Source: Mobula hypostoma
Lineage: Eukaryota
Reading direction: 5' to 3'
Length of the DNA stretch: 64,000 nucleotides
NCBI RefSeq assembly: GCF_963921235.1
Contig: NC_086108.1
Coordinates: 32,986,001 to 33,050,000 of the forward strand
A program made the position numbers and the translations under genes. Under the pieces are notes generated by a model that saw nothing but the letters and a program-made list of their open reading frames with translations, ran no database searches and was not told the DNA's origin. Below are positions 8,145 through 62,712 of the stretch, in pieces. Each line of letters begins with the position of its first letter. Within the stretch, counting starts at the first letter, position 1.

Positions 8145-8366
8145 TCTGTAATGCTGATCCGGCTGTCAAAAACGAATCTGCTGTGGGAACTCAGCAGGTC
8201 GAACAGCATCTGTGGGGAGAAAGGAATTGCTGACACTTTGGTTCGAAGCCCTGCATATCTCCCCCTGGCAACTGTCTCCAGTCTTCTAATCTTCACACTC
8301 CTTTCCCCACCTTGCTTCATTTTGCTCTCAAACCTGCTCGAACTGCAAAGTTCCTCCAGCAGTTGA
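8145..8366. mobile_element. Degenerate inverted PLE terminal repeat pair
   Basis: CTGCTGTGGGAACTCAGCAGGTCGAACAGCA ... CTGCTCGAACTGCAAAGTTCCTCCAGCAG, with a decayed hammerhead remnant at ~8225-8258 on the minus strand. Confidence 0.6.
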
Positions 8367-10851: not shown

Positions 10852-11100
10852 ACACACACAAGCTGCTGGAGGAACTCAGCAGATCAGGCAGCACGTATGG
10901 AAATGAATAAACAGTCGATGTTTCGGGCAGAGACCCTGCTTCAGGACTGGGAAGGAAGGAGGAAGAGGCCAGAATAAAAAATAGTGGAGAGAGGGGAAGG
11001 AGGATAGCTATAAGGTGATAGGTGAAGCCATGTGGGTAGGAAAGATAAAGGGATGGACAGGAAGGAATCTGATAGGAGAGGAGAGTGGACCATGGGAGAA
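10852..11100 (-). mobile_element. PLE terminal repeat with hammerhead motif, inserted in an old CR1 3' fragment
   Basis: Imperfect TSD TGTCCAAGTA (10842-10851) / TGTTCAAGTA (11106-11115). Same family as the copies at 39155, 44097 and 62461. Confidence 0.85.
10912..10949 (-). ncRNA. Minimal type I hammerhead ribozyme motif (core mutated)
   Basis: CAGUC-CUGAAGC-AGGGUCUCUGCCC-GAAA-CAUC-GACUG. Stem I is perfect; A9 is changed to C. Confidence 0.7.
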
Positions 11101-11130: not shown

Positions 11131-11909
11131 ATTAGATTAGATTCAACTTTATTGTCATTGTGCTGAGTACAGATACAAAGCCAATGAAATGCAGTTAGCG
11201 TCTAACCAGGAATGCAAAAAATAGTCTTATTTACAGAATAACTGTGAATAAAAAGTAGTGCTACAGCACACAAATATAGAAGTACTAAGACAATACAATA
11301 TAGATGCAATACTGCTTAGTGCTGTGATGAGAGTTTCAGCAGGGTCACAGCCTCAGGGAAGAAGCTCTTCCTGTGCCTGCTGGTGCAGGAGCGGAGGCTC
11401 CTGTAGTGCCTACTGGATGGGAGGAGAGTAAAAAGTCCATGGTTAGGGTGAGATGCATCCTTGATAATGCTTTTCACCCTGCCCAGGCAGCGTTTATGGT
11501 CGATGTTCTCAATGGTGGGCAATTGGGTGCCGATAATCCACTGGGCAGTTTTCACCACCCACTGGAGTGCTTTGCGGTCCGATACGGGACAATTGCCATA
11601 CCACACTGAGATACAGTTGGTGAGTATGCTCTCAATGGTACAGCAGTAAAAGTCCATCAGTATCCTGCAACAGAGGTGAGCTCTCTTGATGCTCCACAGG
11701 AAATAAAGGCACTGTTGCACCTTTTTGATCAGGATGGAGGAGTTCAGGGACCAGGTGAGATCCTTGGAAGTGTGGACACCAAGGAATTTGAAGCTTGATA
11801 CACGCGCCACTACAGCTCCGTTAAAGTAGATGGGGACGTGAGTGTGGCTCCTAGTATGCCTGAAGTCCACAATGATCCCCTTGGTCTTCTGGGTGTTAAG
11901 GACCAGGTT
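11131..11909 (-). mobile_element. Rex1/Babar LINE, 5'-truncated
   Basis: ORF 11316-11870 (FKFLGVH, IESILTNCISVWYG, HPNHGLFTLLPS). (ATTAG)n tail. TSD AACATTAT at 11123-11130 and 11910-11917. Confidence 0.92.
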
Positions 11910-12115
11910 AACATTATCGTGCCTGCCTCAACCACTTCCTCTGGCAATTCCTTTCATAAATGGACCACCCACTGGGAAGAAAAAGTTGCCCCTCAGGATC
12001 CTATTAAAACTCTCCCTTCTCATCTTAAACCAGTGCTCTCTAATTCTTGACTTCCCAACCCTGGGGGAAAATAAAGATGGCGCACATCCACCCGATAGGA
12101 AGGGTGAAAGATTTT

Positions 12116-12224: not shown

Positions 12225-12371
12225 CCCCATAGAGAGGAGTTGCAGGCAGGTGGTCACACCAGGGCCACGGGAGGCAGACAAGTGGTTAGGAGGGGAAGGG
12301 GAAGAGTCAGGTAATAGAGAGTACCCCAGTGGCTGTGCCCCTTAACAATAGGTACTCCTGTTTGAGTACTG

Positions 12372-12977
12372 TTGGGGGGGACAGCTTACCCGGGGGGAAG
12401 CGACGGTGGCCGTGCCTCCGGCACAGAGTCTGGCCCTGTAGCTCAGAAGGGTAGGGCAAGGAAGAGGAGGGCAGTTGTGATAGGGGACTCGATAGTAAGG
12501 GGGTCAGATAGGCGATTCTGTGGACGCAGTTCAGAGACCTGGATGGTAGTTTGCCTCCCTGGTGCCAGGGTCCGGGATATTTCTGATCGTGTCCAAGATA
12601 TCCTGAAGTGGGAAGGTGAGGAGCCAGAGGTCATGGTACATATAGGTACCAATGACATAGGTAGGAAAAGGGATGAGGTCCTGAAAGGAGAATATAGGGA
12701 GCTAGGAAGGGAGTTGAGAAAAAGGACCGCAAAGGTAGTAATCTCGGGATTACTGCCTGTGCCACGCGACAGTGAGAGTAGGAATGCGATGAGGTGGAGG
12801 ATAAATGCGTGGCTGAGGGATTGGAGCAGGGGGCAGGGATTCAAGTTTTTGGATCATTGGGACCTCTTTTGGCGCAGGCGTGACCTGTACAAAAAGGACG
12901 GGTTACACTTGAATCCTAGGGGGACCAATATCCTAGCAGGGAGATTAGCGAGGGCTACTGAGGTGACTTTAAACTAG
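12372..12977 (+). pseudogene. CR1 ORF1 C-terminal SGNH/GDSL esterase domain
   Basis: Blocks VIGDSIVRG, LPGARV, HIGTNDI and DGLHLN. The N-terminus is truncated or frameshifted. Confidence 0.9.
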
Positions 12978-15900
12978 AATGGTTGGGGGGTGGGAATCAA
13001 ATTAAAGAGGCTAGGCGTGAGGAGGTTAGTTCACAAAAGGGGGATGGGAACCAGTGCAGAGAGACAGAGGGGTGTAAAGTGAGGGTAGAAGCAAAAAGTA
13101 CTAAGGAGAAAAGTGAAAGTGGCAGGCCAACAAATCCAGGGCAAGCATTAAAAAGGGCCACTTTTCAACATAATTGTACAAGGGCTAAGAGAGTTGTAAA
13201 AGAGCGCCTGAAGGCTTTGTGTGTCAATGCAAGGAGCATTCGTAATAAGGTGGATGAATTGAAAGTGCAGATTGTTATTAATGATTATGATATAGTTGGG
13301 ATCACAGAGACATGGCTCCAGGGTGACCAAGGATGGGAGCTCAACGTTCAGGGATATTCAATATTCAGGAGGGATAGACATGAAGGAAGGGGAGGTGGGG
13401 TGGCGTTGCTGGATAAAGAAGAGATTAACGCAATAGAAAGGAAGGACATAAGCCGGGAAGATATGGAATCGATATGGGTAGAGCTGCGTAACACTAAGGG
13501 GCAGAAGACGCTGGTGGGAGTTGTGTACAGGCCACCTAACAGTAGTAGTGAGGTCGGAGATGGTATTAAACAGGAAATTAGAAATGTGTGCAATAAAGGA
13601 ACAGCAGTTATAATGGGTGACTTCAATCTACATGTAGATTGGGTGAACCAAATTGGTAAAGGTGCTGAGGAAGAGGATTTCTTGGAATGTATGCGGGATG
13701 GTTTTTTGAACCAACATGTCGAGGAACCAACTAGAGAGCAGGCTTTTCTGGACTGGGTTTTGAGCAATGAGGAAGGGTTAATTAGCAATCTTGTCGTGAG
13801 AGGCCCCTTGGGTAAGAGTGACCATAATATGGTGGAATTCTTCATTAAGATGGAGAGTGACATAGTTAATTCAGAAACAAAGGTTCTGAACTTAAAGAAG
13901 GGTAACTTTGAAGATATGAGACGTGAATTAGCTTAGATAAACTGGCAAATGACACTTAAAGGATTGACGGTGGATATGCAATGGCAAGCATTTAAAGGTT
14001 GCATGGATGAACTACAACAATTGTTCATCCCAGTTTGGCAAAAGAATAAATCAAGGAAGGTAGTGCACCCATGGCTGACAAGAGAAATTAAGGATAGTAT
14101 CAATTCCAAAGAAGAAGCATACAAATTAGCCAGAGAAAGTGGCTCACCTGAGGACTGGGAGAAATTCAGAGTTCAGCAGAGGAGGACAAAGGGCTTAATT
14201 AGGAAGGGGAAAAAAGATTATGAGAGAAAACTGGCAGGGAACGTAAAAACTGACTGTAAAAGCTTTTATAGATATGTAAAAAGGAAAATACTGGTAAAGA
14301 CAAATGTAGGTCCCCTACAGACAGAAACAGGTGAATTGATTATGGGGAGCAAGGACATGGCAGACCAATTGAATAATTACTTTGGTTCTGTCTTCACTAA
14401 GGAGGACATAAATAATCTTCCAGAAATAGTAGGGGACAGAGGGTCCAGTGAGATGGAGGAACTGAGCGAAATACATGTTAGTAGGGAAGTGGTGTTAGGT
14501 AAATTGAAGGGATTGAAGGCAGATAAATCCCCAGGGCCAGATGGTCTGCATCCTAGAGTGCTTAAGGAAGTAGCCCAAGAAATAGTGGATGCATTAGTGA
14601 TAATTTTTCCAAACTCGTTAGATTCTGGACTAGTTCCTGAGGATTGGAGGGTGGCCGAATGTAACCCCACTTTTTAAAAAAGGAGGGAGAGAGAAACTGG
14701 GGAATTATAGACCGGTTAGCCTAACATCGGTGGTGGGGAAACTGCTGGAGTCAGTTATCAAAGATGTGTTAACAGCACATTTGGAAAGCAGTGAAATCAT
14801 CGGACAAAGTCAGCATGGATTTGTGAAAGGAAAATCATGTCTGACGAATCTCATAGAATTTTTTGAGGATGTAACTAGTAGAGTGGATAGGGGAGAACCA
14901 GTAGATGTGGTATATTTGGACTTTCAAAAGACTTTTGACAAGGTCCCACACAGGAGATTAGTGTGCAAACTTAAAGCACACGGTATTGGGGGTAAGGTAT
15001 TGATGTGGCTGGAGAATTGGTTAGCAGACAGGAAGCAAAGAGTGGAAATAAACGGGACCTTTTCAGAATGGCAGGCAGTGACTAGTGGGGTACCGCAAGG
15101 CTCAGTACTCGGACCCCAGTTGTTTACAATATATATTAATGACTTGGATGAGGGAATTAAATGCAGCATCTCCAAGTTTGCGGATGACACGAAGCTGGGT
15201 GGCAGTGTTAGCTGTGAGGAGGATGCTAAGAGGATGCAGAGTGACTTGGATAGGTTGGGTGAGTGGGCAAATACATGGCAGATGCAATTTAATGTGGATA
15301 AATGTGAAGTTATCCACTTTGGTGGCAAAAATAGGAAAACAGATTATTATCTGAATGGTGGCCGATTAGGAGAAGGGGAGGTGCAACGAGATCTGGGTGT
15401 CATTATACACCAGTCATTGAAAGTGGGCATGCAGGTACAGCAGGCGGTGAAAAAGGCGAATGGTATGCTGGCATTTATAGTGAGAGGATTCGAGTACAGG
15501 AGCAGGGAGGTACTACTGCAGTTGTACAAGGCCTTGGTGAGACCACATCTGGAGTATTGTGCGCAGTTTTGGTCCCCTAATCTGAGGAAAGACATTCTTG
15601 CCATAGAGGGAGTACAAAGAAGGTTCACCAGATTGATTCCTGGGATGGCAGGACTTTCATATGAAAAAAGACTGGATGAACTGGGCTTGTACTCATTGGA
15701 ATTTAGAAGATAGAGGGGGGATCTGATTGAAACGTATAAAATCCTAAAGAGATTGGACAGGCTAGATGCAGGAAGATTGTTCCCGATGTTGGGGAAGTCC
15801 AGAACAAGGAGCCACAGTTTGAGGATAAAGGGGAAGCCTTTTAGGACCGAGATTAGGAAAAACTTCTTCACACAGAGAGTGGTGAATCTGTGGAATTCTC

Positions 15901-16016
15901 TGCCACAGGAAACAGTTGAGGCCAGTTCATTGGCTATATTTAAGAGGGAGTTAGATATGGCCCTTGTGGCTATGGGGATCAGGGGGTATGGAGGGAAGGC
16001 TGGGGCGGGGTTCTGA
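12968..16016 (+). pseudogene. CR1 ORF2 (AP endonuclease + RT) with few lesions
   Basis: APE motifs NARSIRNK, GITETW, YRPP, MGDFN and SDHN, followed by RT motifs. Stops at 13934-13936 and 15711-15713 and a frameshift near 14655. Confidence 0.93.
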
Positions 16017-16316
16017 GTTGGATGATCAGCCATGATCATAATAAATGGCGGTGCAGGCTCGAAGGGCCGAATGGCCTACTCCTGCACCTATTTTCTATGT
16101 TTCTATGTTTCTATGAAACCTGGAATTCCTTGGAGCCTTGAAAATCCTCCTCTAGTGACGTGACAAATCTGTGATCCTTTTCCCAGAGATGATTGTTCCG
16201 TATTCACCAATGACCTCTAAATATTCACACAGCTGATCTGTGCTCAAACTCCAGTCTGTTCTTTTGGCACCTATTTCATTTGTGCTTGTGAATGAATTAA
16301 CTTGATACTGTCTCAC

Positions 16317-18663: not shown

Positions 18664-20301
18664 CAGGTTTCCCTCACCATCTGAAGGTAGAGTGTTCTTA
18701 TGAAATGGTTTGTAAGCCGGAATGTCGTAAAGTGAGGAAGCAATTACCATTTACTTTTACGGGAAAATTCTGTGAGCGTTCGCAGACTCAAAAATAACCT
18801 ACCAAATAATGCCAAATAACACATAAAACCTAAAATAACAGTAACATACAGTAAAAGCAGGAATGATATGATAAGTACACAGCCTATATAAAGTAGAAAT
18901 ACTTTTCCACAATCATTGCCGGCACTGTTCTCCGTAGCGAAAATCTCATGCAAGCGCTCTTGGCAGAAAATCTCACATAAGCGCTGTTGGCAAAAACATG
19001 GCACAAGTTCTCTCCAGTAACCTTTAAGCTATGAAGCAGCCAAATCATACCAAATAACACGTAAAAATACACAGCCTATATAAAGTAGAAATAGTGTAGT
19101 ATCACTTACGGGAATCAGGAAGACAGTGTCAAGCACACTGATGATGGTGTGTTAGACTGAGTTGTCGGAGTTTGGGTGGTGCAGTGGCCCCCACCCTCTG
19201 AGCAGCGACCCGATACCGATCCACGAAGTATGCAGGGGTACAGTGGTGGCCAGGATGCACACAGCACACCTTTAAGAAAAAAGCCGAAATAAACAAGCTA
19301 AGTAATTAGGTGCCGCCCGGCACATAAATGTCAGCCCAGATCAGAAACGACACAATCGGCAATCGCCTCTGATCTGGGCCGACATTTAAGTGCCGGGCAG
19401 CACCTAATTAATTAGCTTGTTTATTTCAGCTTTCTTCTTAAAGATGTGCTGTGTGCCTCCTGGCTGCCGTTGCATTCTCCGCGAATCGGTATCTGTCCGC
19501 AGCCTGGGGGCTGGTGTGGTGGGACACTGGGGTGTCATCTCATCGTCGTCTGTTTCCATTAGGGCAGGCAGCTGATCTTCTCCGATGACTGCCCACCTCG
19601 ATGTCGAAGTTCGAGATTCGTTGTCTGCTGTGGCTGATGCGGAAGGCTTGTTTGACTGCTGAGCCTCGCGCATTTTTCTATCATACCGTTCTTTGTAAGC
19701 ACTCAAACCATCTTTCAAATACTGTATGCCCTAAACCGACATACCCTTTCATAATTAAAGTCGTACTTTATTATTGCAGCGAAAATCTCACGCAGTTGCT
19801 TCACGTTCAGTTCCTGGATGACTTCACTTTTGCTACTGAATGCAGTTTTGATTGTTATCTTTTCCTCTTTCAATTGCATCAGCTCTTCATCTATCAGTTC
19901 TTGGTCATGGGATGCCAAAACCTCTTCAACATCATCTTCATCAGCTTCGACAAGCCAAACTCACTTTGTCCTTACTTCGTTCACCACGATCGAAACGCTT
20001 AATTATGTCTAGTTTTACGCTAAGTGTAACACCCTTATGAGCTCTTTTAGGCTTTTCCAATACCTTAGAACTCATCTTGAAAATGGCTGCTCACAGGCAC
20101 GTGTTTAAGCAATGCCAGTGAGAATGCCGTTCCGAATCCGGGGGAGAGCGGCTGCTCAAGGCGCACGCTACCTTTTATCACACGCTGCCTTTCCTTGTAA
20201 CAGTGAAAACACCTTCTGTTAGCAAAAACAGGGAACTAATGTAGGTCTTTCGTAACAGTGAGGTTTCGTAAAGCGAACGTTCGAAAAGCGGGGGACACCT
20301 G
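18664..20301 (-). mobile_element. Tigger/pogo DNA transposon, internally deleted
   Basis: TIRs CAGGTTTCCC / GGGACACCTG with TA TSDs at 18662-63 and 20302-03. Transposase C-terminal remnants in ORFs 19715-19918 and 19404-19718 (LASHDQELIDEELMQL, YKERYDRK). Confidence 0.88.
19205..19500. repeat. ~300-bp imperfect palindrome inside the Tigger element
   Basis: Arms at ~19205-19350 and ~19363-19500 are reverse complements (e.g. GAAATAAACAAGCTAA / TTAGCTTGTTTATTTC and GCCCAGATCAGA / TCTGATCTGGGC). Confidence 0.9.
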
Positions 20302-20624
20302 TACTGAGGTGAGAGACAGAGGAGTTTGGTTTATAATTTTATAAATCCTCCACCTAATAAAGTGGGATTGAATGTATGTTCATGGTCTTCTACTGCTATA
20401 GCCTATCCAATTCGAGGTTCGATATGTTGTGCATTAAGAGATGCTCTTCTGCACACAAGTGGTATAAAAGGGTTATTAGAGTTGCTGTCGCTTTCCCATC
20501 AGCTTGAACCAGCCTGGACATTCTCCTCTGACCTTTCTCATTAGCATGGTGTTTTTGCCCGCAGAACATCCACTCACTGATTTTGTTTTGTTTTTCACAC
20601 CATTCGCTGTAAACTCTAGAGACT

Positions 20625-20695
20625 AGCAACACACATCAAAGTTGCTGGTGAACGCAGCAGGCCAGGCAGCATCTCTAGGAAGAGGTACAGTCGAC
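20625..20695 (-). mobile_element. 71-bp PLE terminal fragment ending at the hammerhead cleavage triplet
   Basis: Near-identical to the insert at 1981. GACT is duplicated at 20621-20624 and 20696-20699. Confidence 0.85.
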
Positions 20696-20939
20696 GACTG
20701 TTGTGCATGAAAATGCCAGGAGATCAACAGATTCTGAGATACTCAAACCACTCAGTCTGGCACCAACAATCTTTCCACAGTCAAAGTCAATTGGATCACA
20801 TTTCTTCCCTATTCGGATGTTTGGTCTGAAAAACAACTGAAATTCTGGACCATGTCTGCATGCTTTAATGCATTGAGTTGCTGCCACATGATTGGCTGAT
20901 TAGATGTTTGCTTCAATTATTTTATTTAGCAATAAATTA

Positions 20940-22490: not shown

Positions 22491-25380
22491 TTGCTGCTTT
22501 TTCAAGCTCTTTCTCGGACTAAAAGTTGATGCTTGATCCTAGAGATGAAAATGCTGGCCTTGCCAGTAACACTAACATTCAGAAAAAAAATCATCAGTAA
22601 AATAGAAAACGGTGGCTGTTAATGAAGAAACGATTTTAGCACATGTATTTAATTATTTAATTATATTTTGGCTGGATCCTCATGGCACAGCTTGCAGTCT
22701 CTACTCCTTTTTTCAACCCCTTCCTGCCTGTGTTCCAGAAGTTATCCACTCAATGGTTGCAAGTCCACAGTATATAGTTACTCAAGCCTTTAAAGCTACT
22801 TTAATAAGATTAAAAAAAAATTGTTGCTCGGAGTGTGTTGTCCTCAGCTTTGTAAGCTGCTCTCCATAAGAAAGGCAGTACAGCTTTCATTATGATTCAC
22901 ATGATGTCTGAAATCTAACAATGCTTCAGTCCTGAGGACATCAGATACAGTATACAAAGAGCATTCAACTGTGGAAAATAATCCCACATGATTGGCTCTC
23001 AAATATGAAAAAGCACCAGTTTAAATATTGCTCTTCACTTATGCATTGCAATAAATAAGCAAAGGTTGCATCAGGCGTGATTATCTTTCATCAGTCCTTT
23101 GCGGAACTGAACCATAACAATAATCATTACTAAGTAAGATACCACAAATTGCTTAAAGGCATAATGAAATCCCTATCTAAAAGCTGTAGGAAACAATTAG
23201 GTAGGCTTGAGATGAAGAGGGGAATAATGTTTATATGTGCAGCAAACCATTCTATCAGAATTATTTGAGTGGTGTTAACCAGCTTGTCCTGAATAAATTT
23301 ATTTGGTTCATTTCCTAAAATCAATTTAATTTTTAAAAACCATTTATAAAATATGATGTAACTATTGGATTAACTTTGAATAGTTTTATCTAAACCTCAT
23401 CAGAATCGGTGAAAGCTGCAATGTTGGATTTCAGACATCTTTTGTAGGAGTTCTGAAAAATGGGGATTGTTCTAACATGATGCATCTACGCAACAGACTG
23501 GCAGGACTGTTATGAAAACACAACCGTTCTTCTTAATTTCCACCCACTTTTTTTTCAAATAATGTGCAGTCTTTCAATATTGACATTTTTTCTTTGTTTA
23601 ATCCTTCATCAAAACCCTGACCTGGTCATTATCACATTGTTGTTTGTGGGAGTTTGTTTTGTACATATCAGCTGCTTCGTAACATTGTGCTTATATGTCA
23701 ACAGTTCTTTGTTAACTATAAAGTGCTGCAGGACATGCAGAAATGGAGGAAAAGTTGCTACATGAAAAAAGTAAAAAACATTTCTGTCAATTTGTCTTCA
23801 TTGGTAGCTTGGATTAAGCTGTCCAATTCAACATTGGTTACAAACTGATCTGGGGCATCCCACTCTGAAAAATCTCTTTCATGTGCTGTTCACTTTCTTA
23901 ATCCAATGGGCTCCTCGAATTCTGCTCTGGTTATTACATGTGGCACAGTCATGTTCACAAAAATACCTTGCAACATTACAAAGGCACTCCCATTACATGA
24001 AAGCAAAAGATGAGGTACAGAAAGGTTATTTTTCATCCCCATGCAAGGTAAATCTTTTAATTTGGGGTTTCCAAAAGCATTCCTATGATTGGTCCAGCTT
24101 TGTCATAATTCTACTGGCGATAAGGTCACAAGAATGCCACTTCTGTCAACTGTTAACAGTTGTCTTGCTATTTTAGGCATAGTACATTTGGTGTTCAGCA
24201 TAAATGAAGGGCTGGCTTAAACCAGAGATCGTAAATCAATATTGTGCAGTGTTGAGAATGTGCTGATAATGAGAAGGTGCAATTTTGAATTCCACAGAAG
24301 AGTCTCTTGAGAAGATGGTCAGCAGAAAGCTGAGATCTCAATTAAAACCTCAGCATTTTATCCTTTTCTATTTCATTGATGCAATCCCTTCCTCATAGGC
24401 AGCTTTAGTTGGAATTAGATTTTAGATCTCTAGGAGTCATTCATTTCAATGCATTTTTGCCGCAGATAAAATAGCCAATGGTAGTACAAATTTTTATTTA
24501 ACAAGTGGCAGCAGGTAACTACAAAAACTTGCGTTCAAGACTGGCCTCAGATTTAATTAAAAAAAACACGCTGGAAGTCCTGCTGTCACAAGCGTGTCTG
24601 TTGCAATTGCATGTTCTGCCCCTTGTGGTTTGCTGTCTCCAGTCTTTGTTAGGAGACTCTGAATGGGAGTAGAAAGCTGAAGATGACTCTAGCCCAGGCA
24701 ATGCTCCCCTATGCTTCTGCTGTCAATGCTCATTTCCCTGTGCCATTCAATTTAATTACACTTTCTAAGCACCTTTAAGAAACAATCATTTCTGAATATC
24801 ATTTGTACTCCAATCACATGTGGGTTTTATCTGAAAAAAAATGTTCCACCAAAGATGCAATCTGACCTCCCTCCCAGAATCATACCTAGTGCCTTGATCC
24901 CACTTGACTACTTTGAATGCCAGCAGCAGTAAATTATGATTCTTTTAACTAGTTTTGTAACGAAACAGTGGGTAGCATGTTAAAACCTTTCAGTGGCCCA
25001 TAATTTATGATAAGTTTATACTTCTTCAATGTTTTTAATATGCAAGTTTTCAATCAAAAATTAAGTTATGCAAAATTGCAATATAAAACCTTCGTGCATA
25101 TATTACAGATTATATGTATCTTCAGTCTCACTAACACTGAGTATAGTTAGCACAGAAATACAATTAATAGACCTGGAAAGGTTAATTGGGACCAAATGGG
25201 TTAGAACTAGGTTTGCATCCAAAGGATTCCCTTGCCTGTATCCTAGTACTGTTATTAAACTTGAGATGGCCATGGTTTATTATGCGTTGGGAATTTCAGT
25301 TAATGCTCAGGGTTGCCTTCTGATAGTGTGTTATGTTGCCTTCTTCTAGACAGAGTAGCTCTGTACACTGTGCTGCTTTC

Positions 25381-25945
25381 CACTACTACCTCTACCGCCA
25401 TGGTGAGACCGCTCTCAGGCTGCAGGAGCTACACCTCATATTCCATCTGGGTAGCTTCCAACCTGAACATCAATTCACTAACTACTAGTGATTTCTCCCC
25501 ATCCCCCCTTCTCGATCTTTCCATTCTCCATTCTGGCCCCACTCTTACCCCACTCTTACCCCTCTCTTACCCCACTCTTACCCCACTCTTACCCCTCTCT
25601 TGCCCATCACCTCCATCTGGCGTCCTCTTTCTTCCCTGTCCTCTTATCAGATTCCTTCTTCCTCAGCCCGTTTCCTCCTGTCACCTACCAGCTTCTCACT
25701 TCATTCCCCCCCTTCACACCCACCTTCTCCCTTGCCTTGTTTCTCCTATTACCTGCCAGCTTGAACTCATTTCCCTCCCGCCCCACCTCCTTCTTATTTT
25801 GACTTCTTTCCCCTTCTTTTTCAGTCCTGATAAAGGGTCTCGACCTCAATCATCAATTGTTTATTCCCCTCCATAGATGCTGGAAATCCAGAGTTTTTTT
25901 GTGTGAGTTTCTCTGGGTTTCCAGCATCTGCAGATGGCTTGAGTT
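25381..25945 (+). mobile_element. Penelope-like element (Neptune-type) 3' end: GIY-YIG C-terminus + terminal repeat with decayed hammerhead
   Basis: Reads LYRHGETALRLQELHLIFHLGSFQP. Decayed motif CAGTCCTGATAAAGGGTCTCGACC at ~25822-25859. Confidence 0.8.
25537..25601. repeat. 11-bp minisatellite (CCCCWCTCTTA) x ~6
   Basis: Tandem units are directly visible. Confidence 0.85.
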
Positions 25946-26099
25946 TATAATTTCCAGCTCTCCATTCTATCTCTCAGCCTTCCAAGGCTAATACAATAGC
26001 AGCCAAGTTTCTTTCTACTTCTTCTTATCCTTATATCCACCTACTGAGTCACAGATACTTCTATTAGTGGATCCAATGGTGTTTCGCATCAAATATTTC

Positions 26100-29230: not shown

Positions 29231-29827
29231 GTCATAGTCACAGTCATAGTCATACTTTATTGATCCCAGGGGGAAATTGGTTTTTGTTAGAGTTGCACCA
29301 TAAATAATAAATAGTAATAGAACCATAAATAGTTAAATAGTAATATGTAAATTATGCCAGTAAATTATGAAATAAATTCAGGACCAGTCTATTGGCTCAG
29401 GGTGTCTGACCCTCCAAGGGAGGAGTTGTAAAGTTTGAGGGAATGACTTCCTATGACGCTCTGTGCTGCATCTCGGAGGAATGAGTCACTGGCTGAATGT
29501 ACTCCTGTGCCCACCCAGTACATTATGTAGTGGCTGGGAGACATTGTCCAAGATGGCATGCAACTTGGACGGCATCCTCTTTTCAGACACCACCGCCAGA
29601 GAGTCCAGTTCCATCCCCACAACATTACTGGCCTTACGAACGAGTTTGTTGATTCTGTTGGTGTCTGCTACCCTCAGCCTGCTCACAGCAAACGTGATAG
29701 CACTGGCCACCACAGACTCGTAGAACATCCTCAGCATCATCCGGCAGATGTTAAAGGACCTCAGTCTCCTCAGGAAATAGAGACGGCTCTGACCCTTCTT
29801 GTAGACAGCCTCAGTGCTCTTTGACCT
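29231..29827 (-). mobile_element. Rex1/Babar LINE, 5'-truncated, (GACTAT)n tail
   Basis: ORF 29486-29830 (KKGQSRLYFLRRLRSF, FYESVVAS). Same family as 58012-58504. Confidence 0.9.
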
Positions 29828-29902
29828 CAACTTGCTGGCTTGCCTGTTGCTGCAGTCCAGGTGAGGAGACGCTGGAGGTGGTGCAGCGTGGCCTCTGTGC
29901 TT

Positions 29903-32900
29903 AGAAACACAGAAAACCTACAGCACAAAACAGGTCCTTCGGCCCACGAAGCTGTGCTGAACATCTCCTTACCTAAGGTTACCCATAGCCCTCTGTTTTT
30001 CTAAGCTCCATGTACCTGTCCAGGAGTCTTTTTAAAGACCCTATCGTAATTGCCTCCAGCACCGAGGCCGACAGCCTATTCCACGCACTCACCACTCTCT
30101 GCATAAAAAACTTACCCCGACACCGCCTCTGTACCTACTTCCAAGCACCTTAAAACTGTGCTCCCTCGTGCTAGCCATTTCAGCCCTGGGAAAAAGCCTC
30201 TGACTATCCACATGATCAATGCTTCTCATCATCTTATAGGCCTTTATCAGGTCACCTCTCATTCTCCGTCGCTCCAAGGAGAAAGGGCTGACTTTACTCA
30301 ACCTGTTCTCATGAGGCATGCTCCCCAATCCAGGCAACATCCTTGTAAATCACCTCTGCACCCTTTCTATGGCTTCCATATCCTTCCTGTAGTGAGGTGA
30401 CCAGAACTAAGCACAGTACTCCAAGTGGGGTCTGACCAGGGTCCTATACATCTGCAACATTACCTCTCGGCCCCTAAACTCAATCCCATGATTGCTGAAG
30501 ACCAACACACCATATGCTTTCTTAGCCACAGAGTCAACCTCCGCAGCAGCTTTGAGTGTCCTATGTATTTGGACCCCAAGATCCCTCTGATCCTCCACAC
30601 TGCCAAGAGTCTTAACATTAATATTATATTCTGCCATCATATTTGACCCACCAAAATGAACCACCTCACACTATCCACAACACCTCCAACTTTTGTGTCA
30701 TCAGAAAATTTATTAACTCATCCTTCCATTTCCTCATTCAGGTCATTTATAAAAATCACAAAGAGGAGGGATCCCAGAACAGATCCCTAAGGCACTCCAC
30801 CATGCAGAATATGACCCCTCTACAACCACTCTTTGCCTTCTGTGGGCAAACCAGTTCTGGATCCACAAAGCAATGTCCCCTTTAATCCCATTCCTCCTTA
30901 CCTCCTCAATAAGCCTTGCATGGGGTACCTTGTCAAATGCCTTGTTGAAATCCATATACACTACATCTACTGCTCTGTCTTCATCAATGTGTTTAGTCAC
31001 ATCCTCAAACAATTCAATCAGGCTCATAAGGCACGACCTGCCTTTGACAAAGCCATGCTGACTATTCCCAATCATATTATGCATCTCAAAACGTTCATGA
31101 ATCCTGCCTCTCAGGATCTTCTCCGTCAACTTACCAACCACTGAAGTAAGACTCACTGGTCTATAATTTTCTGGGCTATCTCTACTCCCTTTCTTGAATA
31201 ATGGAACAACATCCGCAACCCTCCAATCCTCTGGAACCTCTCTCGTCCCCATTGATGATGCAAAGACCATCGCCAGGGGCTCAGCAATCTCCTCCCTCAC
31301 CTCCCACAGTAGCCTGGGGTACATCTTGACTGGTCCCGGTGACTTATCCAACTTGATGCTTTCCAAAAGCTCCTGTACATCCTCTTCCTTAACTTCTACA
31401 TGCTCAAGCTTTTCAGTCTGCTGTAAGTCATCCCTACAATCATCAACATCCTTTTCTGTAGTGAATACTGAAGCAAAGTATTCATTAAGTACCTCTGCTA
31501 TCTCCTCCGGTTCCAAACACACTTTCCCACTGTCACACATGATTTGTCCTATTCTCTCACGTCTTATCCTCTTGCTCTTCACCTACTTGTAGAATGCCTT
31601 GGGATTTTCCTCAATCCTTCTGGCTCTCCTAATTTCTTTGCCAAGCTCTTTCCTGCTAACCTTATAATCTTCAAGATTTCTATCATTACCTAGTTTTTTG
31701 AACCTTTCGTAAGCTCTTCTTTTCTTCGTGACTAGATTTACAACAGCATTTGTACACCACGTTTCCTGTACCCTACCATCTTTTCCCTGTCTCATTGGAA
31801 CGTACCTATTCAGAACTCCACGCAAATATCCCCTGAACATTTGTCACATTTCTTTTGTACGTTTCCCTGAGAACATCTGTTCCCAATTTATGCTTCAAAT
31901 TCCTGCCTGATAGCCTCATATTTCCCCTTACTACAATTAAAGATTTCCCTAATTTGTCTGTTCCTATCCCTTTCGAATGCTATGGTAAAGGGGATAGAAT
32001 TGTGATCACTATGCCAAAATGCTCTCCCACTGAGAGATCTGACACCTGACCAGGTTCATTTCCCAATACCAGTTCAAGTACAGCTTCTCCACTTGTATGC
32101 TTATCTACATATTGTGTCAAGAAACCTTCCTGAACACACCTAACAAACTCCACCCCATCTAAACAATTCGCTCTAGGGAGATACCAATTGAAATTTGGGA
32201 AATTAAAATCTTGCCACCATGACAACTCTGTTATTATTACTCCTTTCCAGAATCTGTCTCCCTATCTGCTCCTTGGTGTCCTGTTACTATTGGGTGGTCT
32301 ATAAAAAACACCCAGTAGAGTTATTTACCCCTTCCTGTTCCTAACTTCCACCCACAGAAACTCCATAGACAACCTCTCCATGACTTCCTCCTTTTCTGCA
32401 GCCGTGATACTATCTCTGATCAACAGTGCCATGCTCCCACCTCTTTTGCCTTCTTCCCTGTCCTTTCTGAAACATCTAAAGCCTGGCACTTGAAGTAACC
32501 ATTCCTGCCCCTGAGCCATACAAATCTCTGTAATGGCCACAACATCATAGCTCCAAGTACTGATCCACGCTCTAAGCTCATCTGTTTGCATTAAAATAGG
32601 CACATCTCAAATCATCGGTCTGAACACGTCCCTTCTCTATCACCTGCCTATCCTCCCTCTCGCATTGTCTCCAAGTTTTCTCTATTTTTGAGTCAATCAC
32701 CTCTTCCTCCATCTCTTCAGTTTGGTTCCCACCCTCCAGCAATTCCAGTGTAAACTCTCCTCAAAAGCCTTAGCAAACTTCACCACCAGGATATTTGCCC
32801 CCTGGGATTCAAGTGCAACCTATCCTTTTTGTACAGGTCACTCCTGCCCCAAAGAGGTCTAGAAATCTGAATCCCTGCCCCCTGTTCCAATCCCTCAGCC

Positions 32901-38870: not shown

Positions 38871-39202
38871 GTTGAGAACAATATTCTTGAATGTCGGTAA
38901 TAATCTTGGAAAAACGGGCTCTTCTTGCAGAGCATTAAAGGAAGCTGTTTTTCCTTGGAAATATTATGGTGGACATTTGGTCCAGTTTTCTTCCATTTTC
39001 TCTCAGCTACTCTGCATGATCACTTGAGTTTGTGGACAGATTTGTTTAACCATGACGATGTTTTACTGTGACTTTTTTTTTACTCTAAGTGGGGCCACTG
39101 TGTATAATATATTTGTCAAGTTATAGTTGAAAGAATCAACCATTTAATTCACTGCAACACACACAAAATGCTGGAGGAACTCAGCATCTATGGAAAAGAG
39201 TA

Positions 39203-39240
39203 CAGTCGACGTTTTGGGCTGAGAGCCCTCAGCGGGACTG
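39203..39240 (-). ncRNA. Hammerhead motif, degenerate
   Basis: CAGUC-CCGCUGA-GGGCUCUCAGCCC-AAAA-CGUC-GACUG. Confidence 0.55.
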
Positions 39241-39699
39241 GAGAGAAAAAGATGAGGGGTAGAGTTAAAAAGCTGGGGGCGGGGGAGTGGAGAAACGTAA
39301 GGTGATCGGTGAAACTGGGCAGGGGAGGGGTGAAGTAAAGAGCTGGGAAGTTGATGGGTGAAAGAGAAAAGGGGGGAAGGAGTGTCACAGGGAGGCGATG
39401 GGCAGGTGAAGAGATAAGGTGAGAGAGGGAGAAGGGGGTGGGGAATAGTGAAGGAGGGAGTGGCATTACAGGAAATTCGAGAACATCACCACCCTCCTGT
39501 GTTCCTGTCCCCTTTTCTTTCTTCCATGCCCTCCTGGCTTCTCCTATCAGAATCCCACTTCTCCAGCACTGTCTCTCTTTCACCAATCAGATTCCCAGCT
39601 CTTTACTTCATCCCTCCCCTCCCTGTTTCACCGATCATCTCGTGTTTCTCCCTCCCCTCCTCTCCCTACCTTTTAACTCTACCCTCATCTCTTTCACTC

Positions 39700-39737
39700 C
39701 AGTCCTGCCGAAGAGTCTCGGTCCGAAACGACGACTG
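39700..39737 (+). ncRNA. Hammerhead motif, variant core
   Basis: CAGUC-CUGCCGA-AGAGUCUCGGUCC-GAAA-CGAC-GACUG. Confidence 0.6.
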
Positions 39738-40139
39738 TACTCTTTCCCATAGATACTGCCTGGCCTGCTGAGTTCCTCCAGCATTTTGTGTGAGTTACTT
39801 GGATTTCCAGCATCTTCAGTTTTCTCTTGTTCGTCAGTTAATTTACTGAGCAGTTTAAGTCACATGGGCTAGATAAGCTAGCCAGCTCAGAGAATTTAAG
39901 CCGCGTGCAGCAACAAGAAACTGTTTTTTAACTGCAATTTTTTTCTTAGTCTTGGTTCCAGGCAGGGGGGCATCAAAAAGTACGCAAAAATAATCAGTGA
40001 TAGTAGTATCAGACAGAGAGACACAGGAAGGTTGACACCATTGGAAACCTCTCAGATAAAGGCTCTTCCCTGAAATGCTCTTCTTGTCTACAGATACAGC
40101 CAACCTGCTGATTGTTTCCAGCATTTTGTGATTTAGCCA

Positions 40140-40679: not shown

Positions 40680-43273
40680 AAAAACTGTAGATGCTGGAAA
40701 TAGTGAAATAAAAACAGAAAATATTAGAAATGTTCAGGTCAGGCTGTTTATATATGTGAGGAGAAAATAGAGCTAATACCTTAGGTCAAACATCGTTCAT
40801 CAGAACTGGAAAAAAGTGAAATAAAAAATTATTAAGCAGCAGGAGAGTGGGGAATGGGGGGTGGGGTAGTCATGTCTCTTAACTGGGATGTCCACGAGGA
40901 TAAGCTTATGCGAGGCTAGCTGGTCAATGAGTGAACGGGAGAGTTAGAGAGTGAGAACAAGAGACAAAGGGATATGCTTACAAAATGCAGAGCACAACGG
41001 CTTACCCAACAGCTCCGGCTTGTCCTTCACTCCCAGAGGACAAAAAGGAAAAAGTCAGTAAACAATATCAAAGACTGGTACAGATAGAAATCAAGTTACC
41101 TGAAATTGTGGTGCTCAATACGAAGACCGAAAGGCATCTATGTGCCCAGGGGGAAGAAGTAGAGGGTCCTCAAGTTCGTATTGCACACCATTGTAACAGT
41201 GCAGGGGGCTGAGATTGGTAGGTCAGAGTGGAAGTGGGATGGGGGACTGGGCTCGCAGTGTTGTCCCTGCGGACTGAATGGAGATGCCCTGCAGACCTAC
41301 TTTTGGTTTCTCTGATATAGGGTAGACCACAGAGTGATGACATGAACATAGTACACTTGATGCGAGGAGTGCAAATGACTTGCAGTGCACCTGGAAAAGC
41401 TGTTTAGGCCCCTGGGTTGTGGGAAGAGGAAACCATAAGACACAGGAGCAGAAGTAGGCCATTCGCGCTACTGACCTTGCTCTGCCATTCCATCATGGCT
41501 GATTTATTATCCCCCTCAACTCCATTCTCCTGCCTTTTCCCCATAGCCTTTGATACCTTACTGATCAAGAACCTGCTTTAAATACACCCAATGACCTGGC
41601 CTCCACAGTCATAAGTAGCAATGAATTCCACAGATACACCACCCTCTGGCTAAAACGAAAATCCTCCTTATCTCTGTTCCAAAGGGATGCCCTTCTATTC
41701 TGAGTCTATGCTCTCTGGTCCTGGACTCAACCACCATAGGAAGCATCCTCTCCATATCCACTATATGTAGGCCTTTCAGTATTCAATAGGTCTCAGTGAG
41801 ATCCTCTTCGTTCTGCTAAACTGCAGTGAGTGCAGGCCCAGAGTCATCAAATGCTCCTCACATATTAACCCTTTCATTCCCAGGATCATTCTCGTGCACC
41901 TCCTCCGGACCCGCTCCAATCCAAGCACATCCCTTCTTAGATAAGGGGCCCAAAACTGCTGACAATATTCTGTGTGGTCTGACAAATGCCTTATAAAACC
42001 AAATCATTTTATCTTTCCTTTGTATTCTAGTCTTCTCAAAATGAATGCTAACATTGCATTTGTCTTCCTTACCACTGACTCAGTACGCAAGTTAACCTTT
42101 AAGGAATCCTTTATGAGGAGCCTCAAGTCCATTTGCGTCTCTGATTTCTGAATTTGCTCCTTGTTTAGAATATAGTTCACACCTTTATTCCTTCTGTTAA
42201 AGTGCATGACCATGCACTTCTCTCTACTGTATTGCATCTGCCACTTCTTTGTCCATTCCTCTAATCCGTCTAAGTCCTTCTGTAGACTCCCTGCTTCCTC
42301 AACACTACCTGCCCCTCCACCTACCATTGTATCCATCAATCCCATCATCCAAATCATTGACATAACATGAAAAGAAGCTGTCCCAACACTGACCTCTCTA
42401 GGACACTACTAGACACTGGCAGCCAACCAGAAAAGGCCACCTTCATTCCAACTTTGCCTTCTGCCAATCTTCTATCCGTGCTAGCCTGGAATACCAGGGC
42501 TCTCTTCTTGTTTAGCAGCCTCATTTGTGGCACCTTGTCAAAGACCTTCTGAAAATCCACGTAAACAACATCCACCGATTTCTTCTGTCTAACCTGTCTG
42601 TTGTTTCCTCAAAGAATTCCAACAGATTTATCAAGCAAAATTTCCTATTAAGGAAAGCATGCTTACTTTGGCCCTTTTTATTATGTGCCTCCAAGTAGGC
42701 CTAAGTAATGGACTCCAACATCTTTCAAAACACTGAAGTCAGGCTAACTGGCCTATAATTTCCTGACTTTTGCCTTCCTCCCTTTTTAAACAGCGGAGTG
42801 ACATTTGCATGCAGTAGTAAGTATAAGTTCCATAAGAAGGTAGGATGATCGGTGGGAACAGAAAAATGGACAAGGGAGTCATGACGAGAATGGTCCTGCA
42901 AAAATGCTGCGGGGGAGGAGAGAGAAAGATGTGTTTGGTGGTTGAATTTCTTCAAAAAGGGCAGAAACTGCAGAGAACGGTCTGTTGAATGCTGATGTTG
43001 GTTGGTAGGAAGGTGAGGAGCAGAGGAATTCTATCTTCGCTCAATTCCAGAAGAACAGAGGTGAGATGCAGTCAAGGGTTTTATTACGAAGGTAGAATGG
43101 AAGCCATGGATCAATAAGAAGAAAATCATTTCAGAGGCACCTGTACAGAAAGTTTCATCATTGCAGCAATAATGTTGGAGACAGAAGAACTTGGAGAATG
43201 GAATAAAGTCCTTATAGAGGCAGCGTGAGATGAAGAATAGGTGAGATAGAGTGGGAGTCAGTAAGCTTCTCAC
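40680..43273 (-). mobile_element. Penelope-like element (Neptune-type): RT C-terminus, GIY-YIG and terminal repeat, split by a CR1
   Basis: 43031-43273 IPFSKFFCLQHYCCNDETF; 42725-42955 AFLQDHSRHDSLVH; ~41250-41430 GPKQLFQV...CGLPYIRETK. Terminal repeat at 40680-40815 with a CUGAUGA remnant near 40800. Confidence 0.78.
41433..42808 (-). mobile_element. CR1 LINE 5'-truncated, inserted in PLE
   Basis: ORFs 42354-42575, 42004-42363 and 41776-41985, with a TCTTATGG tail. Confidence 0.9.
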
Positions 43274-43509
43274 AACACTGTGGAAGCACTTTCAACAGAG
43301 CAACTACTATTGTTCAAGAAGGTACAATAGCTCACCATCTCCTTCTCAATTAAGATCAGGCAGTAAATTCTGATCCAGCCAGTGACAGCAAGTCCCTGAT
43401 AATGAATTTTAAAAAGCACTCATACAGCTGCAACACATGTATTTTCAGAGTGGCAGAAATCCTTACGTGTGCCTATGTAAGCATTACAAAATGCTGTAAT
43501 GTTTGCATT

Positions 43510-43755
43510 ACTGGACTAATAGCCAGGGTTTGGAACCATTTATCCAGAGACATGAGTTCAAATCCCACCCTGGCAGCTGTGGAATTTAAAGTCAAGTAAT
43601 TAACTTAACCTGGAATTAAAGCTGGACTCAGCAACTGCGGAAAAGCTGAGTCATTGAACACAAAACCTATCTACTGCTTCAGCAAGGAAGTTCACTATCC
43701 TTCCCTGCTCTGGCCTATGTGAGACTCCAGACCTAGTAATATTGTGGCTAACCTC
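43510..43755 (+). mobile_element. Old SINE
   Basis: B-box-like GAGTTCAAATCCC at ~43554 and a SINE-like body. Family not identified. Confidence 0.5.
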
Positions 43756-44096
43756 CTCCGGAACAACATACTGCTGGTGGTGGAGGCAGACGCAATAGAG
43801 ACATTTAAGAGGCCCTCATATAGACATGAATATGCATATGCAGACAACAAAGGGATATGGTTCATGTGCAGCCAGAAGGGATTTGGTGTCATTAGTTCAG
43901 CACAATATAATGGGCCAAAGAACCTGTTCCTGTGCTGTCCGTGTTCTATGTTCGATTGACATCCAAACTGAGAATCAATAAATAATGTAAACACCTACAC
44001 GTCCCTGATTCTACCATGACACCTGAACAAGGGTGAGGAGAAAAGAAAGTAAGGGATTGCCCTTGCCCCTAGTCACCCAGTATAGCAATTACTTGA

Positions 44097-44305
44097 ACAA
44101 CACACACAAAATGGTAGAGGAACCCAGAGGATCAGGCAACGTCATGGTGGGAGTTGAGTAGTCGACATTTCAGGCCAAGACCCTTCATCAGGACTGGAAA
44201 GAAATAGGGCAGAAGCCAGAATTAAAAGGTGGAATTAGAGGGAGGAGCTCAGGGTGGCAGGTGATAGGAGAGTCCAGGTGTGGGAGAAGGTAAGTTGGTG
44301 GAAGG
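44097..44305 (-). mobile_element. PLE terminal repeat fragment
   Basis: Same family as the copy at 10852. Weak possible TSD TTACTTGA / TTATTTGA. Confidence 0.8.
44160..44196 (-). ncRNA. Minimal type I hammerhead ribozyme motif, best-preserved copy
   Basis: CAGUC-CUGAUGA-AGGGUCUUGGCCU-GAAA-UGUC^GACU. All core residues are present; predicted cleavage between 44164 and 44163. Confidence 0.82.
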
Positions 44306-44509
44306 TTATTTGAGTGTGTCTACGTCATACAGTTTCCTGCGGTACAGGAAAAATTTGTCAAGGGTGAAGAGAAACTCCTTTATTTATCTTGTGATTCAGA
44401 TGGACTCCAGGTTCCTTCAGGGGGCCCAAAGCAACAGGAAGCTAAAGCCGGAAGAACTTCACAAATCTGCATACCCCCAATGTTACTGCTCTTTGTTGTC
44501 CCCTCCACT

Positions 44510-45130
44510 TAAATAGTTAGCATCTGCAACACCCTGCATACCATTGTGGGATGCACACTTGGAAATAATGATAATAAATTAGCCACTGCTGCTGGGAACA
44601 TTTTTGACACCAGATCAAGGATATCATGACCTTTGTTTCCATAGACTGAGCAGATCAGACATGGGTATGTAGGGTCACAGTTGGATCTGTCTCCGATCTG
44701 TTGGTTCTGTTGAATTGCTCCCTGCATATTCTTGAGAGGTGGGGTCAATGATAGGAAGTCTTCTCTCCTCTTGTGGAGTTCTGTGCACTTTTTCCTCTTG
44801 CTCCTGGTCATGTTGGACACCATCCAGGACCTGCTCAGAAGCACTCTGCAATGAGGTGCACACTTTGTGCTCATCTTCACACCCCACAACAATTGCTACC
44901 AGACACCTTTGTCACTTGGAAACATCCATGGTAATCTGCCACCAAATCCTCAACAGACCTGGCAGGTGACTGATCACACCCCTCCCCCTTAACCTGTATT
45001 CTGAGAGTGGCCCATCTGACTTCCCATTCAGAAAATCCTGGACATCTTCACAGAAAAGTTTCAAGTGAGCCCTGCAGTGCGACTTCTGTCGTCTGCTGAT
45101 TTTCCATGACTTCTGCATACTAGCCTGTTA
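44510..45130 (-). mobile_element. Decayed Tx1/L1-like LINE remnant
   Basis: Weak resemblance (KNVP motif region) to Tx1-like ORF2; heavily frameshifted. Confidence 0.35.
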
Positions 45131-45611
45131 AGTGCATGGGAGTGTCAGGCAGAGTTAAGGATGCTGCACAACTCACAGTACTTCACCTGAAAGGCATGAT
45201 GCAAACACTTCAACTCTGTTTTTTAATCACATGATCCTGGCAAAGGTTACACGCTTTAATAGAATGTCTAAGCCATGAACCACCTTCAGAAATTGCAAGT
45301 AAAGATTAAATGGTGGAGTAAACAATGTATTAATGTAGTGTCATGTCACCACTTGATATTTCAAAGTAGTTCATAATCAATTACGCCTTTGTACAACTTA
45401 GATATGATTGTAATAGGAAGTGCAGCAGTCAAAAAGCTGTACAGATGTTTATCTCAGGAAGGGAATTAATTAAAGAACTTTTCCATCAACTCCCTCACAA
45501 TGACAAATCTAATGGGTAAACTTTCCCACTTTCATTAATCATGTTTAAGGACAGGACAGTAAGTTTTCCAGCAGGATCCCGTGCAAAGAAATTTCTACCA
45601 GAGCGTTATCC

Positions 45612-61345: not shown

Positions 61346-62460
61346 CTGATCTGCTTCTAGCTGTCTTTGCTGACTTACTTTTGTCTTCACAGATACTGCC
61401 TGACTTGCTGAGTGTTTCCAGTATTTTCTGCTTTTATTTAAAATTTAAATGTTTCATCTACTGACTTAAAGTGTTTTGGCAAGATAAACTCTTGATGATT
61501 AATGTGACAGCTAAGTGTTAGGACCTATTGCCTCTTGCCCTTACAGTGACTTGAAAAGCATTGTAAGCCTCCTCGAAGTGCTTCCACAACCCTTGGGCTT
61601 GATCCATATCCTGTCTGAAAGTGGACCAAAAAAAAAGAATCACAATCAAGCCCACTGCAGTTTCCAAAGATGCATCAACAGCACTGGGAACAAATGCTAT
61701 AGCCTATCCTTTGTTGTGCTGCAGTCTGTTACAAAGAAGGGAAAAGAATAGAGCAAATACAGCTTTAAATTGGAGCTCGTCCATCAGACAGTGAAATCAA
61801 GAGTGACTTCTTTCAAGAAACAGAAATAATAGATAGAGATGTAGCCCATCCTGCTTTTAAGCAGGGACACTTACAATTTATTAGGTGATGTGCTTTGGGA
61901 CAGGATCTGCATTCCTCACCAAAGTTCCACATGCTGACAAATTCGGCTGATACTGACAATATTGTGGGCAGCTTTCAGTCCCCTGATCTCTCATTTTGGG
62001 AAGAGTCTTCAGGTGATTGCCAGGATGGGTACGAGCTACTCTGATTATGCTACATTATTGCTGAGCATTTCCACACTCTGACCTCTCTCCAGCAGTCAAT
62101 CTGTTCTTTGTTGATCATTTACTTGAACTGAGGGATGCGGAAGGAAGAGAATTGAATGAACTGTCTGCAAAGTGGAGGCTGGGGATTTGTAAAATATGAG
62201 ACTATTTTGTTGCACCATCTGCTTCGATTCCAAAGATGGAATTGTGACAATATGCTGATGTTGGCACCATAGAGCAACTTATTCCATTTGACAATGGACT
62301 ATCGTGGGATTAGATTTACCCTGCTCCCTCTGTCAACTGTCCACACTTTACTGATCAGGACAATGGTAACAAGAAGGATTAACCTGACATTATGGACTTC
62401 TTAACCCAGGGCTATATCAACAGGGTTCCATTGATATTTTAACAGAACTACCTCAGAGTT

Positions 62461-62712
62461 ATAAACAGAGGAGATTCTGCAAATGTTGGGAATCCAGAGC
62501 AACACACACAAAAGGCTGGATGAACTCAGCAGGTCACCTATGTAAATAAGTAAACAGTCGATGTTTCAGGACAAGACCCTTCAGAAGGACAGGAAAGGAA
62601 GGGGGAAGTTGCCAGAACAAGAAGGTGGGGGAGGGGAAGGAAGACAAGCTAGAATGTGACAGGTGAAGCCAGGTGGGTGGGGGAAGGGGGTGAAGTAAGA
62701 AGCTGGGACTAC
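62461..62712 (-). mobile_element. PLE terminal repeat with decayed hammerhead (62555-62592)
   Basis: CUGUC-CUUCUGA-AGGGUCUUGUCCU-GAAA-CAUC-GACUG. Confidence 0.8.

Follow-up and report, generated by a model that had tools for sequence, protein, structure and literature searches.

The 64-kb window examined here (64,000 nucleotides of Mobula hypostoma contig NC_086108.1, within which all positions are counted) contains a short motif at 44160–44196 that retains what looks like a complete hammerhead ribozyme core. An earlier note, made from the letters of the sequence, had assigned this motif to a dispersed family of minimal type I hammerheads (min-HHRs) in the terminal repeats (pLTRs) of Penelope-like elements (PLEs), and had suggested that this copy could still cleave. 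The questions raised by the locus are whether such a family exists, and whether its one intact-looking member is a ribozyme at work or an insertion in decay.

A hammerhead motif recurs across the window

The motif is present at all seven sites at which the earlier note had placed it, lying on the forward strand at 25822 and 39700 and on the reverse strand at the other five (Table 1; copies are named by the first position of the motif, and hammerhead numbering follows the usage in the papers cited below). The consensus proposed for it equals the majority of the seven copies everywhere except at position 11.1, where four copies read T and three read C. The 12-base core is intact in one copy of the seven; at least one core base is gone from each of the other six, and the 2043 copy has neither the 5′ arm of stem I nor C3. 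An unpaired extra base between A9 and position 10.1 is A in six of the seven copies, and the palindrome at 15.2–16.2 is ACGU in the majority of the copies and in the loose-end consensus rows, with no helix III. With the short helix I (4–5 bp) and helix II in register, 89.7% of the 58 cells are paired, compared with 15–50% when the helices are slid. A check of the stems for covariation among the seven copies, as the earlier note had advised, found no pair changed on both sides and no compensatory change.

Both strands of the window were scanned with a type I hammerhead descriptor, and 44160–44196 on the reverse strand was the only match. Markov-1 shuffles gave a mean of 0.025 matches, with at least one match in 5 of 200. 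A DNA profile was then built from eight pLTR motif copies and run on the window and on the reversed window. It produced 14 matches at E<0.01 in the 64 kb, eight by construction and six independent, together covering 2,438 bp, and zero matches at E≤5 in the reversed sequence. Two remnants had also been suggested, near 8240 and 40800; the first is upheld by the profile (E 6.5e-6), while the second is recognised by eye and context, its tail alone having scored (E 0.72). Rfam covariance models returned no hammerhead among 11 matches at E≤5 in the whole window, and none among three matches at E≤10 in 44120–44240. The seven-site observation is confirmed, and the reading of the motifs as minimal type I hammerhead patterns within PLE terminal repeats is supported.

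Table 1. Positions of PLE-derived features in the window
Feature	Position	Strand	Basis or remark
Young 93-bp 5′-truncated copy	1982–2074	−	Starts inside the core, at U4
Older remnants, 7387–7481(−), 7632–7850(+) and 8178–8256(−)	7387–8331	.	
pLTR fragment with motif 10912–10949 (A9 and 16.2 mutated)	10845–11083	−	
Young copy of about 70 bp, absent from the earlier note	20625–20696	−	5′ end 3 nt before the scissile bond
GIY-YIG C-terminus remnant (E..LI..LG..P), directly upstream of pLTR	25340–25490	+	Profile of 20 PLE C-termini
pLTR with motif 25822–25859 (G8, G12 and A15.1 mutated), tail and hairpin-forming inverted duplication	25490–25959	+	
Single insertion of two head-to-head pLTRs	39146–39838	.	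11-bp duplication around it, one mismatch
First half of inverted pair, motif 39203–39240	39146–39482	−	Starts at apparent last ORF codons
Second half of inverted pair, motif 39700–39737 and tail	39516–39838	+	
Heavily decayed hammerhead remnant (40770–40830) and tail of old PLE	40683–40830	−	
GIY-YIG remnant of old PLE	41095–41393	−	Score 45; 0/100 shuffles as high
Part of old PLE body, C-terminal to the RT core	42830–43268	−	Frameshift-aware score 103; shuffle maximum 58
Solo 5′-truncated pLTR fragment with flagged motif	44098–44304	−	207 bp
Flagged minimal type I hammerhead motif	44159–44196	−	Sequence, descriptor
pLTR fragment with motif 62555–62592 (G5, A6 and 16.2 mutated) and tail	62458–62710	−	

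Anatomy of the repeat

pLTR fragments occur at a density of about one per 4.5 kb of the window. They measure 70–470 bp, their longer members are 69–78% identical to one another, and their 5′ ends are ragged. The motif lies some 60 nt upstream of a 3′ end common to the copies. An optional tail of about 35 nt is present in the 39700, 62555 and 25822 copies and absent from those at 44160, 39203, 2043 and 20625; the 10912 copy extends a few bases beyond the first 3′ end. Two 3′ ends are seen both in the window and in the sequencing contigs described below. All motif-bearing copies span the scissile bond, so that their template RNA must have been uncut there, or re-joined. The young short insert at 1982–2074 begins 27 nt upstream of this bond. 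For the insert at 20625–20696 an origin by cleavage was entertained but dropped, since it starts 3 nt upstream of the bond.

The 1982–2074 copy was inserted into a LINE and is bordered by a 13-bp target-site duplication; the empty site is preserved at 13714–16115, in a 95–96% identical LINE that lacks the insert. These two young LINE copies occupy 1–2510 and 12231–16115, the latter with an esterase (GDSL) ORF1, an endonuclease and an RT. The neighbouring repeats, which have Pfam RT, endonuclease and esterase matches, are presumably of the CR1/L2 type. The 70-bp insert at 20625 lies in a remnant (20450–20900, reverse strand) whose translation appears to resemble a Tc1 transposase.

Inverted arrangements recur among the copies. 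The core is broken in both members of the head-to-head pair at 39203 and 39700. At 25857–25945 on the forward strand, the place of the 3′ part of the pLTR copy is taken by the copy's tail sequence in inverted orientation, and the result is an almost perfect hairpin of about 25 bp (z −5.2; none of 200 shuffles as stable). The arrangement looks like the product of a template switch. Two old pLTR remnants, 7421–7559 and 8174–8331, are 75% identical and have an inverted junction in common, which would reflect either duplication at this locus or a non-autonomous element of composite structure.

Other features lie among these repeats. A long, near-perfect inverted repeat at 19270–19450, centred near 19355 with arms of about 80 bp, is possibly a palindromic non-autonomous DNA transposon; matches to miRNA families in it fall below the gathering score. 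ORFs at 11316–11927 and 29486–29917, both on the reverse strand, match Pfam ALKBH8_N and are likely C-terminal pieces of a further non-LTR retrotransposon family. No tRNA genes were found in the window.

PLE coding remnants

The GIY-YIG coding remnants that the earlier note had seen upstream of two copies are indeed there, preceding the 25822 and 40800 copies. On the reverse strand an old PLE can be followed from an RT-side region through the GIY-YIG remnant to the decayed motif, in the same orientation as its pLTR. It is split by a nested LINE at 41432–42809, which interrupts the RT–endonuclease linker, the stretch that is Zn-finger-like in the Neptune clade, and leaves the body on one side and the GIY-YIG remnant on the other, the latter's scored match covering 41191–41393. 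In tblastn searches the body remnant at 42830–43268 matched PLE proteins with E values down to 8e-9, the reversed window giving none at E≤0.01. The best match to 42901–43041 among 81 proteins was a Chiloscyllium punctatum protein, at 45% identity, in keeping with a host among the cartilaginous fishes.

The remnant upstream of the 25822 copy is fainter. It is the best match in the window to the C-terminus profile, with E values of 0.017–0.024 against 1.5 for the best control; compared with the intact PLE protein of metagenome locus L018, described below, its score was equalled in 18 of 100 shuffles. A 53-residue fragment from this region (25327–25485) gave no match by word search, in the ESM Atlas or Pfam, in a full HMMER search or in a viral-contig search. 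Neither a full-length element nor a tandem unit of the form pLTR–ORF–pLTR was found in the 64-kb window.

Abundance and the contig consensus

Contigs from four of the 24 listed sequencing runs were aligned to 39540–39870 at ≥80% likeness. Run X2 is possibly the source of the window, X20 represents another organism, and the two further runs are guessed to be RNA. The very high copy number claimed for the family is borne out by the 95,872 contigs of X2 that align to this one copy, a figure that counts contigs rather than copies, as do the 97,636 of X20 and the 11,101 and 7,483 of the RNA-guess runs. At three positions where the 39700 copy is mutated, the letter most frequent among the contigs of X2 and of X20 is the canonical one: 39714 (92% and 91%), 39722 (69% and 78%) and 39731 (95% and 95%). 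At position 11.1, where the window copies are divided, C is the family majority with about 81–82% of depth, T accounting for only 18–19% (18.2% in X2 and 19.0% in X20).

Loose ends of the contigs cluster behind 39791–39796, where the continuation is heterogeneous, and behind 39815, fitting two 3′ ends. Alignments also break at subfamily differences (39738 and 39747). In a single contig of the RNA-guess run X21, with a depth of 2,139, a joint at 39724/39762 connects the region of the motif with the 3′ part read from the other strand; this is possibly a highly expressed transcript with an inverted copy, or an artefact. For 43400–45400, around the flagged copy, no RNA run was listed, which says nothing about expression there.

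Core bases decay like the flanking sequence

Conservation of the core and stems above the flanking repeat, on which the earlier reading depended, was not found at the level of the copies. In the five older copies, divergence from the majority affects 8 of 60 sites (13.3%) when the 12 core bases are scored and 23 of 211 sites (10.9%) in the 3′ flank (Fisher p=0.65). The contigs give a similar picture, their letters being weighted by depth rather than counted by copy and drawn from contigs pre-selected at ≥80% likeness. G12, the proposed general base (PMC6155905), has changed to A in 17.3% of depth in X2 and 18.6% in X20, compared with 16.8% and 14.8% for the G>A change at a CpG base in loop II. 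The RNA-guess runs are noisier, with G12>A at 35% and 25% against 22% and 31% in the loop. Among the variants listed, two inside the motif are not of the CpG kind, one at N7 and the other in loop II; this would fit selection that acts on master elements alone.

A loss of 13.3% per site leaves 18% of copies with an intact core, or 1.08 expected among six full copies, and one is seen. Because core bases decay like the DNA around them, chance alone would leave the core intact in about one of six full copies. The decay of core bases in the dispersed copies is neutral-like, and the view of these copies as a functioning ribozyme repeat is not supported.

The copy at 44160

All 12 core bases are present in the 44160 copy, as the earlier note had stated. 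Stem I pairs 44196–44192 with 44163–44159 over 4 bp; the core boxes are CUGAUGA (44191–44185) and GAAA (44171–44168), the extra A is at 44184, and the GUC triplet is present, with a predicted scissile bond at 44164/44163. Stem II (44183–44172) has 4 bp, two of them G·U, and a 4-nt loop. Four positions depart from the family majority, three of them through CpG>TpG changes (44177, 44172 and 44167). One of these CpG transitions replaces the G10.1–C11.1 pair by G·U (44183/44172), and the palindrome that was proposed to serve as stem III reads AUGU here rather than ACGU. The G·U substitutions leave all pairs of stems II and III formally possible.

In folding models the monomer adopts stems I and II in hammerhead topology at −6.8 to −7.5 kcal/mol, a predicted energy that is not better than that of shuffles (z 0.67). 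The modelled strand-swapped homodimer reaches −6.8 kcal/mol for the 44160 copy and −19.9 kcal/mol for the consensus, and a heterodimer of 44160 with a consensus partner is predicted at −13.7 kcal/mol; these dimer figures are nearest-neighbour energies only. On the same strand, the nearest copies lie at distances of 3.3 and 5 kb, and the core is broken in both.

The fragment in which the motif lies stops at the first 3′ end and is flanked by a candidate degenerate target-site duplication of 9 bp (7/9 match). No significant match to PLE coding sequence was found upstream of it (score 29; 50 of 100 shuffles as high). A CxxC-like stretch at 44590–44657 on the reverse strand, upstream of the copy, had E values of 0.04–0.08 with one profile; it was dropped when a closer profile gave E 2.6 and 50 of 100 shuffles scored as high.

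The suggestion that this copy could still cleave is thus not sustained: the palindrome and the G10.1–C11.1 pair are lost, the modelled dimer is weak, there is no intact same-strand partner nearby, and chance alone predicts an intact core. From its sequence and the folding models, we consider the 44160 copy likely to be a lone, neutrally decaying and inactive insertion. Given the neutral decay of the core in dispersed copies, its intact appearance is no sign of function.

Related motifs in other animals

A loose core pattern run on metagenomes returned 119 loci, of an estimated 620 in the collection. Among 94 distinct motifs from these loci, stem I, which lies outside the pattern, can form at least 3 bp in 55; when the partners were permuted the mean was 16.8 and the maximum 31. 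Several pair types occur at I.2–I.4. An ORF recognised by PLE profiles is present at 26 of the 119 loci. One of them, L018, contains an intact ORF of 1,049 residues with RT and GIY-YIG regions (260–3406, forward strand), from which 81 relatives were retrieved. The min-HHR of L018, at 323–351, is overlapped by the 5′ region of this PLE ORF. Inverted or tandem PLE arrangements are seen at L044, L057/L058 and L061–L063. DNA patterns specific to the family had no match in viral contigs and none in metagenomes. With a looser pattern, viral contigs gave one match, which had no stem I and was judged to be due to chance.

Discussion

At the level of the family, the motif has every sequence feature reported for the min-HHRs of metazoan PLE pLTRs by Cervera & De la Pena (2014, PMC4209133). 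As described there, it is of type I without helix III, has a palindromic 15.2–16.2 and a G10.1–C11.1 pair, and possesses an extra base between positions 9 and 10.1 together with a helix I of 4–5 bp; the 44160 copy itself lacks two of these features, the palindrome and G10.1–C11.1. The genomic setting is also alike: most of the published motifs are single and dispersed, from truncated PLEs, and some occur in opposite-strand pairs 100–700 bp apart, the pair in the window being separated by about 460 bp. Helix II is shorter, with 4 bp against the 7–8 bp given for Schistosoma (PMC4209133). The family seems to be far more numerous than the 4,000–9,000 copies reported for coelacanth and Xenopus (PMC4209133), with the caution that 95,872 is a number of contigs and not of copies.

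Two accounts of PLEs allow the surrounding repeat to be placed. EN+ elements of the Neptune and Penelope-Poseidon types (Craig et al. 2021, PMC8557442) are described as having an RT followed by a C-terminal GIY-YIG, as in the remnants here, and as being subject to heavy 5′ truncation, with inverted 5′ copies (compare 39146–39838, within one target-site duplication) and a 30–40 bp tail at one end; the window differs in holding remnants only, with no full-length or tandem element. The PAc (Poseidon) element of Anolis carolinensis (Frangieh et al. 2024, PMC11167929) likewise has its hammerhead upstream of two alternative 3′ ends with a 30–40 nt tail between them, and its inserted copies, too, span the uncut site. 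The PAc ORF starts at stem II (PMC11167929), whereas no such ORF start is established for the family in the window.

Overall, we conclude with considerable confidence that the motifs are minimal type I hammerheads in 5′-truncated pLTR fragments of a very abundant PLE, and that the 44160 copy is an isolated insertion undergoing neutral decay, probably inactive. By analogy with PAc, for which the tail is explained by two internal start sites of reverse transcription (PMC11167929), the RT–endonuclease would nick genomic DNA and reverse transcription would begin within the RNA, downstream of the hammerhead, at either of two sites, giving rise to the two 3′ ends; copying would mostly stop early or invert. 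In an active master element, cleavage by the hammerhead may be weak at best and depend on a strand-swapped dimer joined by the ACGU palindrome, on the help of the element's protein, or on both, if the published systems (PMC4209133, PMC11167929) are a guide. After insertion, core bases would be lost at the neutral rate, and in the 44160 copy these losses would have missed the 12 core bases and struck stems I, II and III. The three other explanations considered below together account, in our estimate, for roughly one part in seven of the probability.

The family might instead be a non-autonomous, SINE-like retrozyme of the non-LTR type, spread through small circular RNAs produced by its own hammerhead. 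Most copies consist of pLTR alone, a few contigs contain short tandem joints of the 3′ part, and a 2026 preprint (bioRxiv 10.64898/2026.07.22.740005) describes retrozymes from one chondrichthyan genome and traces the origin of retrozymes to PLE pLTRs. Animal non-LTR retrozymes are, like the repeat here, short, non-coding, type I hammerhead sequences related to pLTRs (PMC7229834; bioRxiv 10.64898/2026.07.22.740005). The same two sources nevertheless describe tandem units of fixed length, expressed as circles and mostly with canonical hammerheads (PMC7229834 for the last point), whereas the motif in the window is minimal and its copies are dispersed or inverted, 5′-ragged and free of tandem fixed-length units, the tandem joints in the contigs being rare and short. 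The 5′ ends are heterogeneous, no copy starts exactly at the scissile bond, and upstream of two copies the sequence runs on into PLE coding remnants. We therefore regard a retrozyme origin as improbable.

The preferred reading, of dead PLE ends, has also to be set against the case for the 44160 copy as a ribozyme that works or has been exapted, cutting a host read-through transcript by itself, together with a partner copy in trans or aided by a PLE protein. The complete core, the predicted folding of the monomer into stems I and II and the modelled energy of the heterodimer with a consensus partner are in keeping with this, as are the presence of the family in the two RNA-guess runs and the report that the PAc hammerhead cleaves only with the element's protein (PMC11167929). 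An intact core is, however, what chance predicts, the palindrome and G10.1–C11.1 are gone from this copy, and its nearest same-strand neighbours have broken cores. Even min-HHRs of consensus type are reported to cleave poorly, with no detectable cleavage by single motifs and little by dimers (PMC4209133), and in the anole the hammerhead is described as dispensable for insertion, with no RNA-seq reads ending at its site (PMC11167929). A functional 44160 copy thus seems to us a long shot. We attach a similarly small likelihood to a broader version, in which solo copies such as 44160 form a passively transcribed pool of half-ribozymes that, paired in trans or activated by PLE protein, cut host read-through RNAs.

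Chance resemblance in an ordinary repeat of no ribozyme ancestry would agree with the absence of Rfam hammerhead matches, of covariation among the window copies and of a folding energy better than shuffles for 44160, but it is very nearly dismissed by a family majority with every published min-HHR feature and by the recurrence of the same core with a covarying stem I beside PLE ORFs in other animals, the Rfam models presumably needing a stem III.

A search of the main texts of the literature found no paper on the min-HHRs of cartilaginous-fish PLEs. As PLE min-HHRs have been known since 2014, the present family adds a host lineage and an extreme of copy number rather than a new mechanism. It also implies that genome-wide counts of ribozymes in such genomes are mostly counts of dead transposon ends. 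The in vivo role of PLE hammerheads is still described as open (PMC8557442, PMC11167929), and a family of this size would give the power to test that role from DNA alone, by comparing 5′ junctions with the scissile bond. Were the half-ribozyme pool real, a related trace would be expected in 5′ insertion junctions piled up inside the hammerhead, and both of the young short inserts in the window begin within it.
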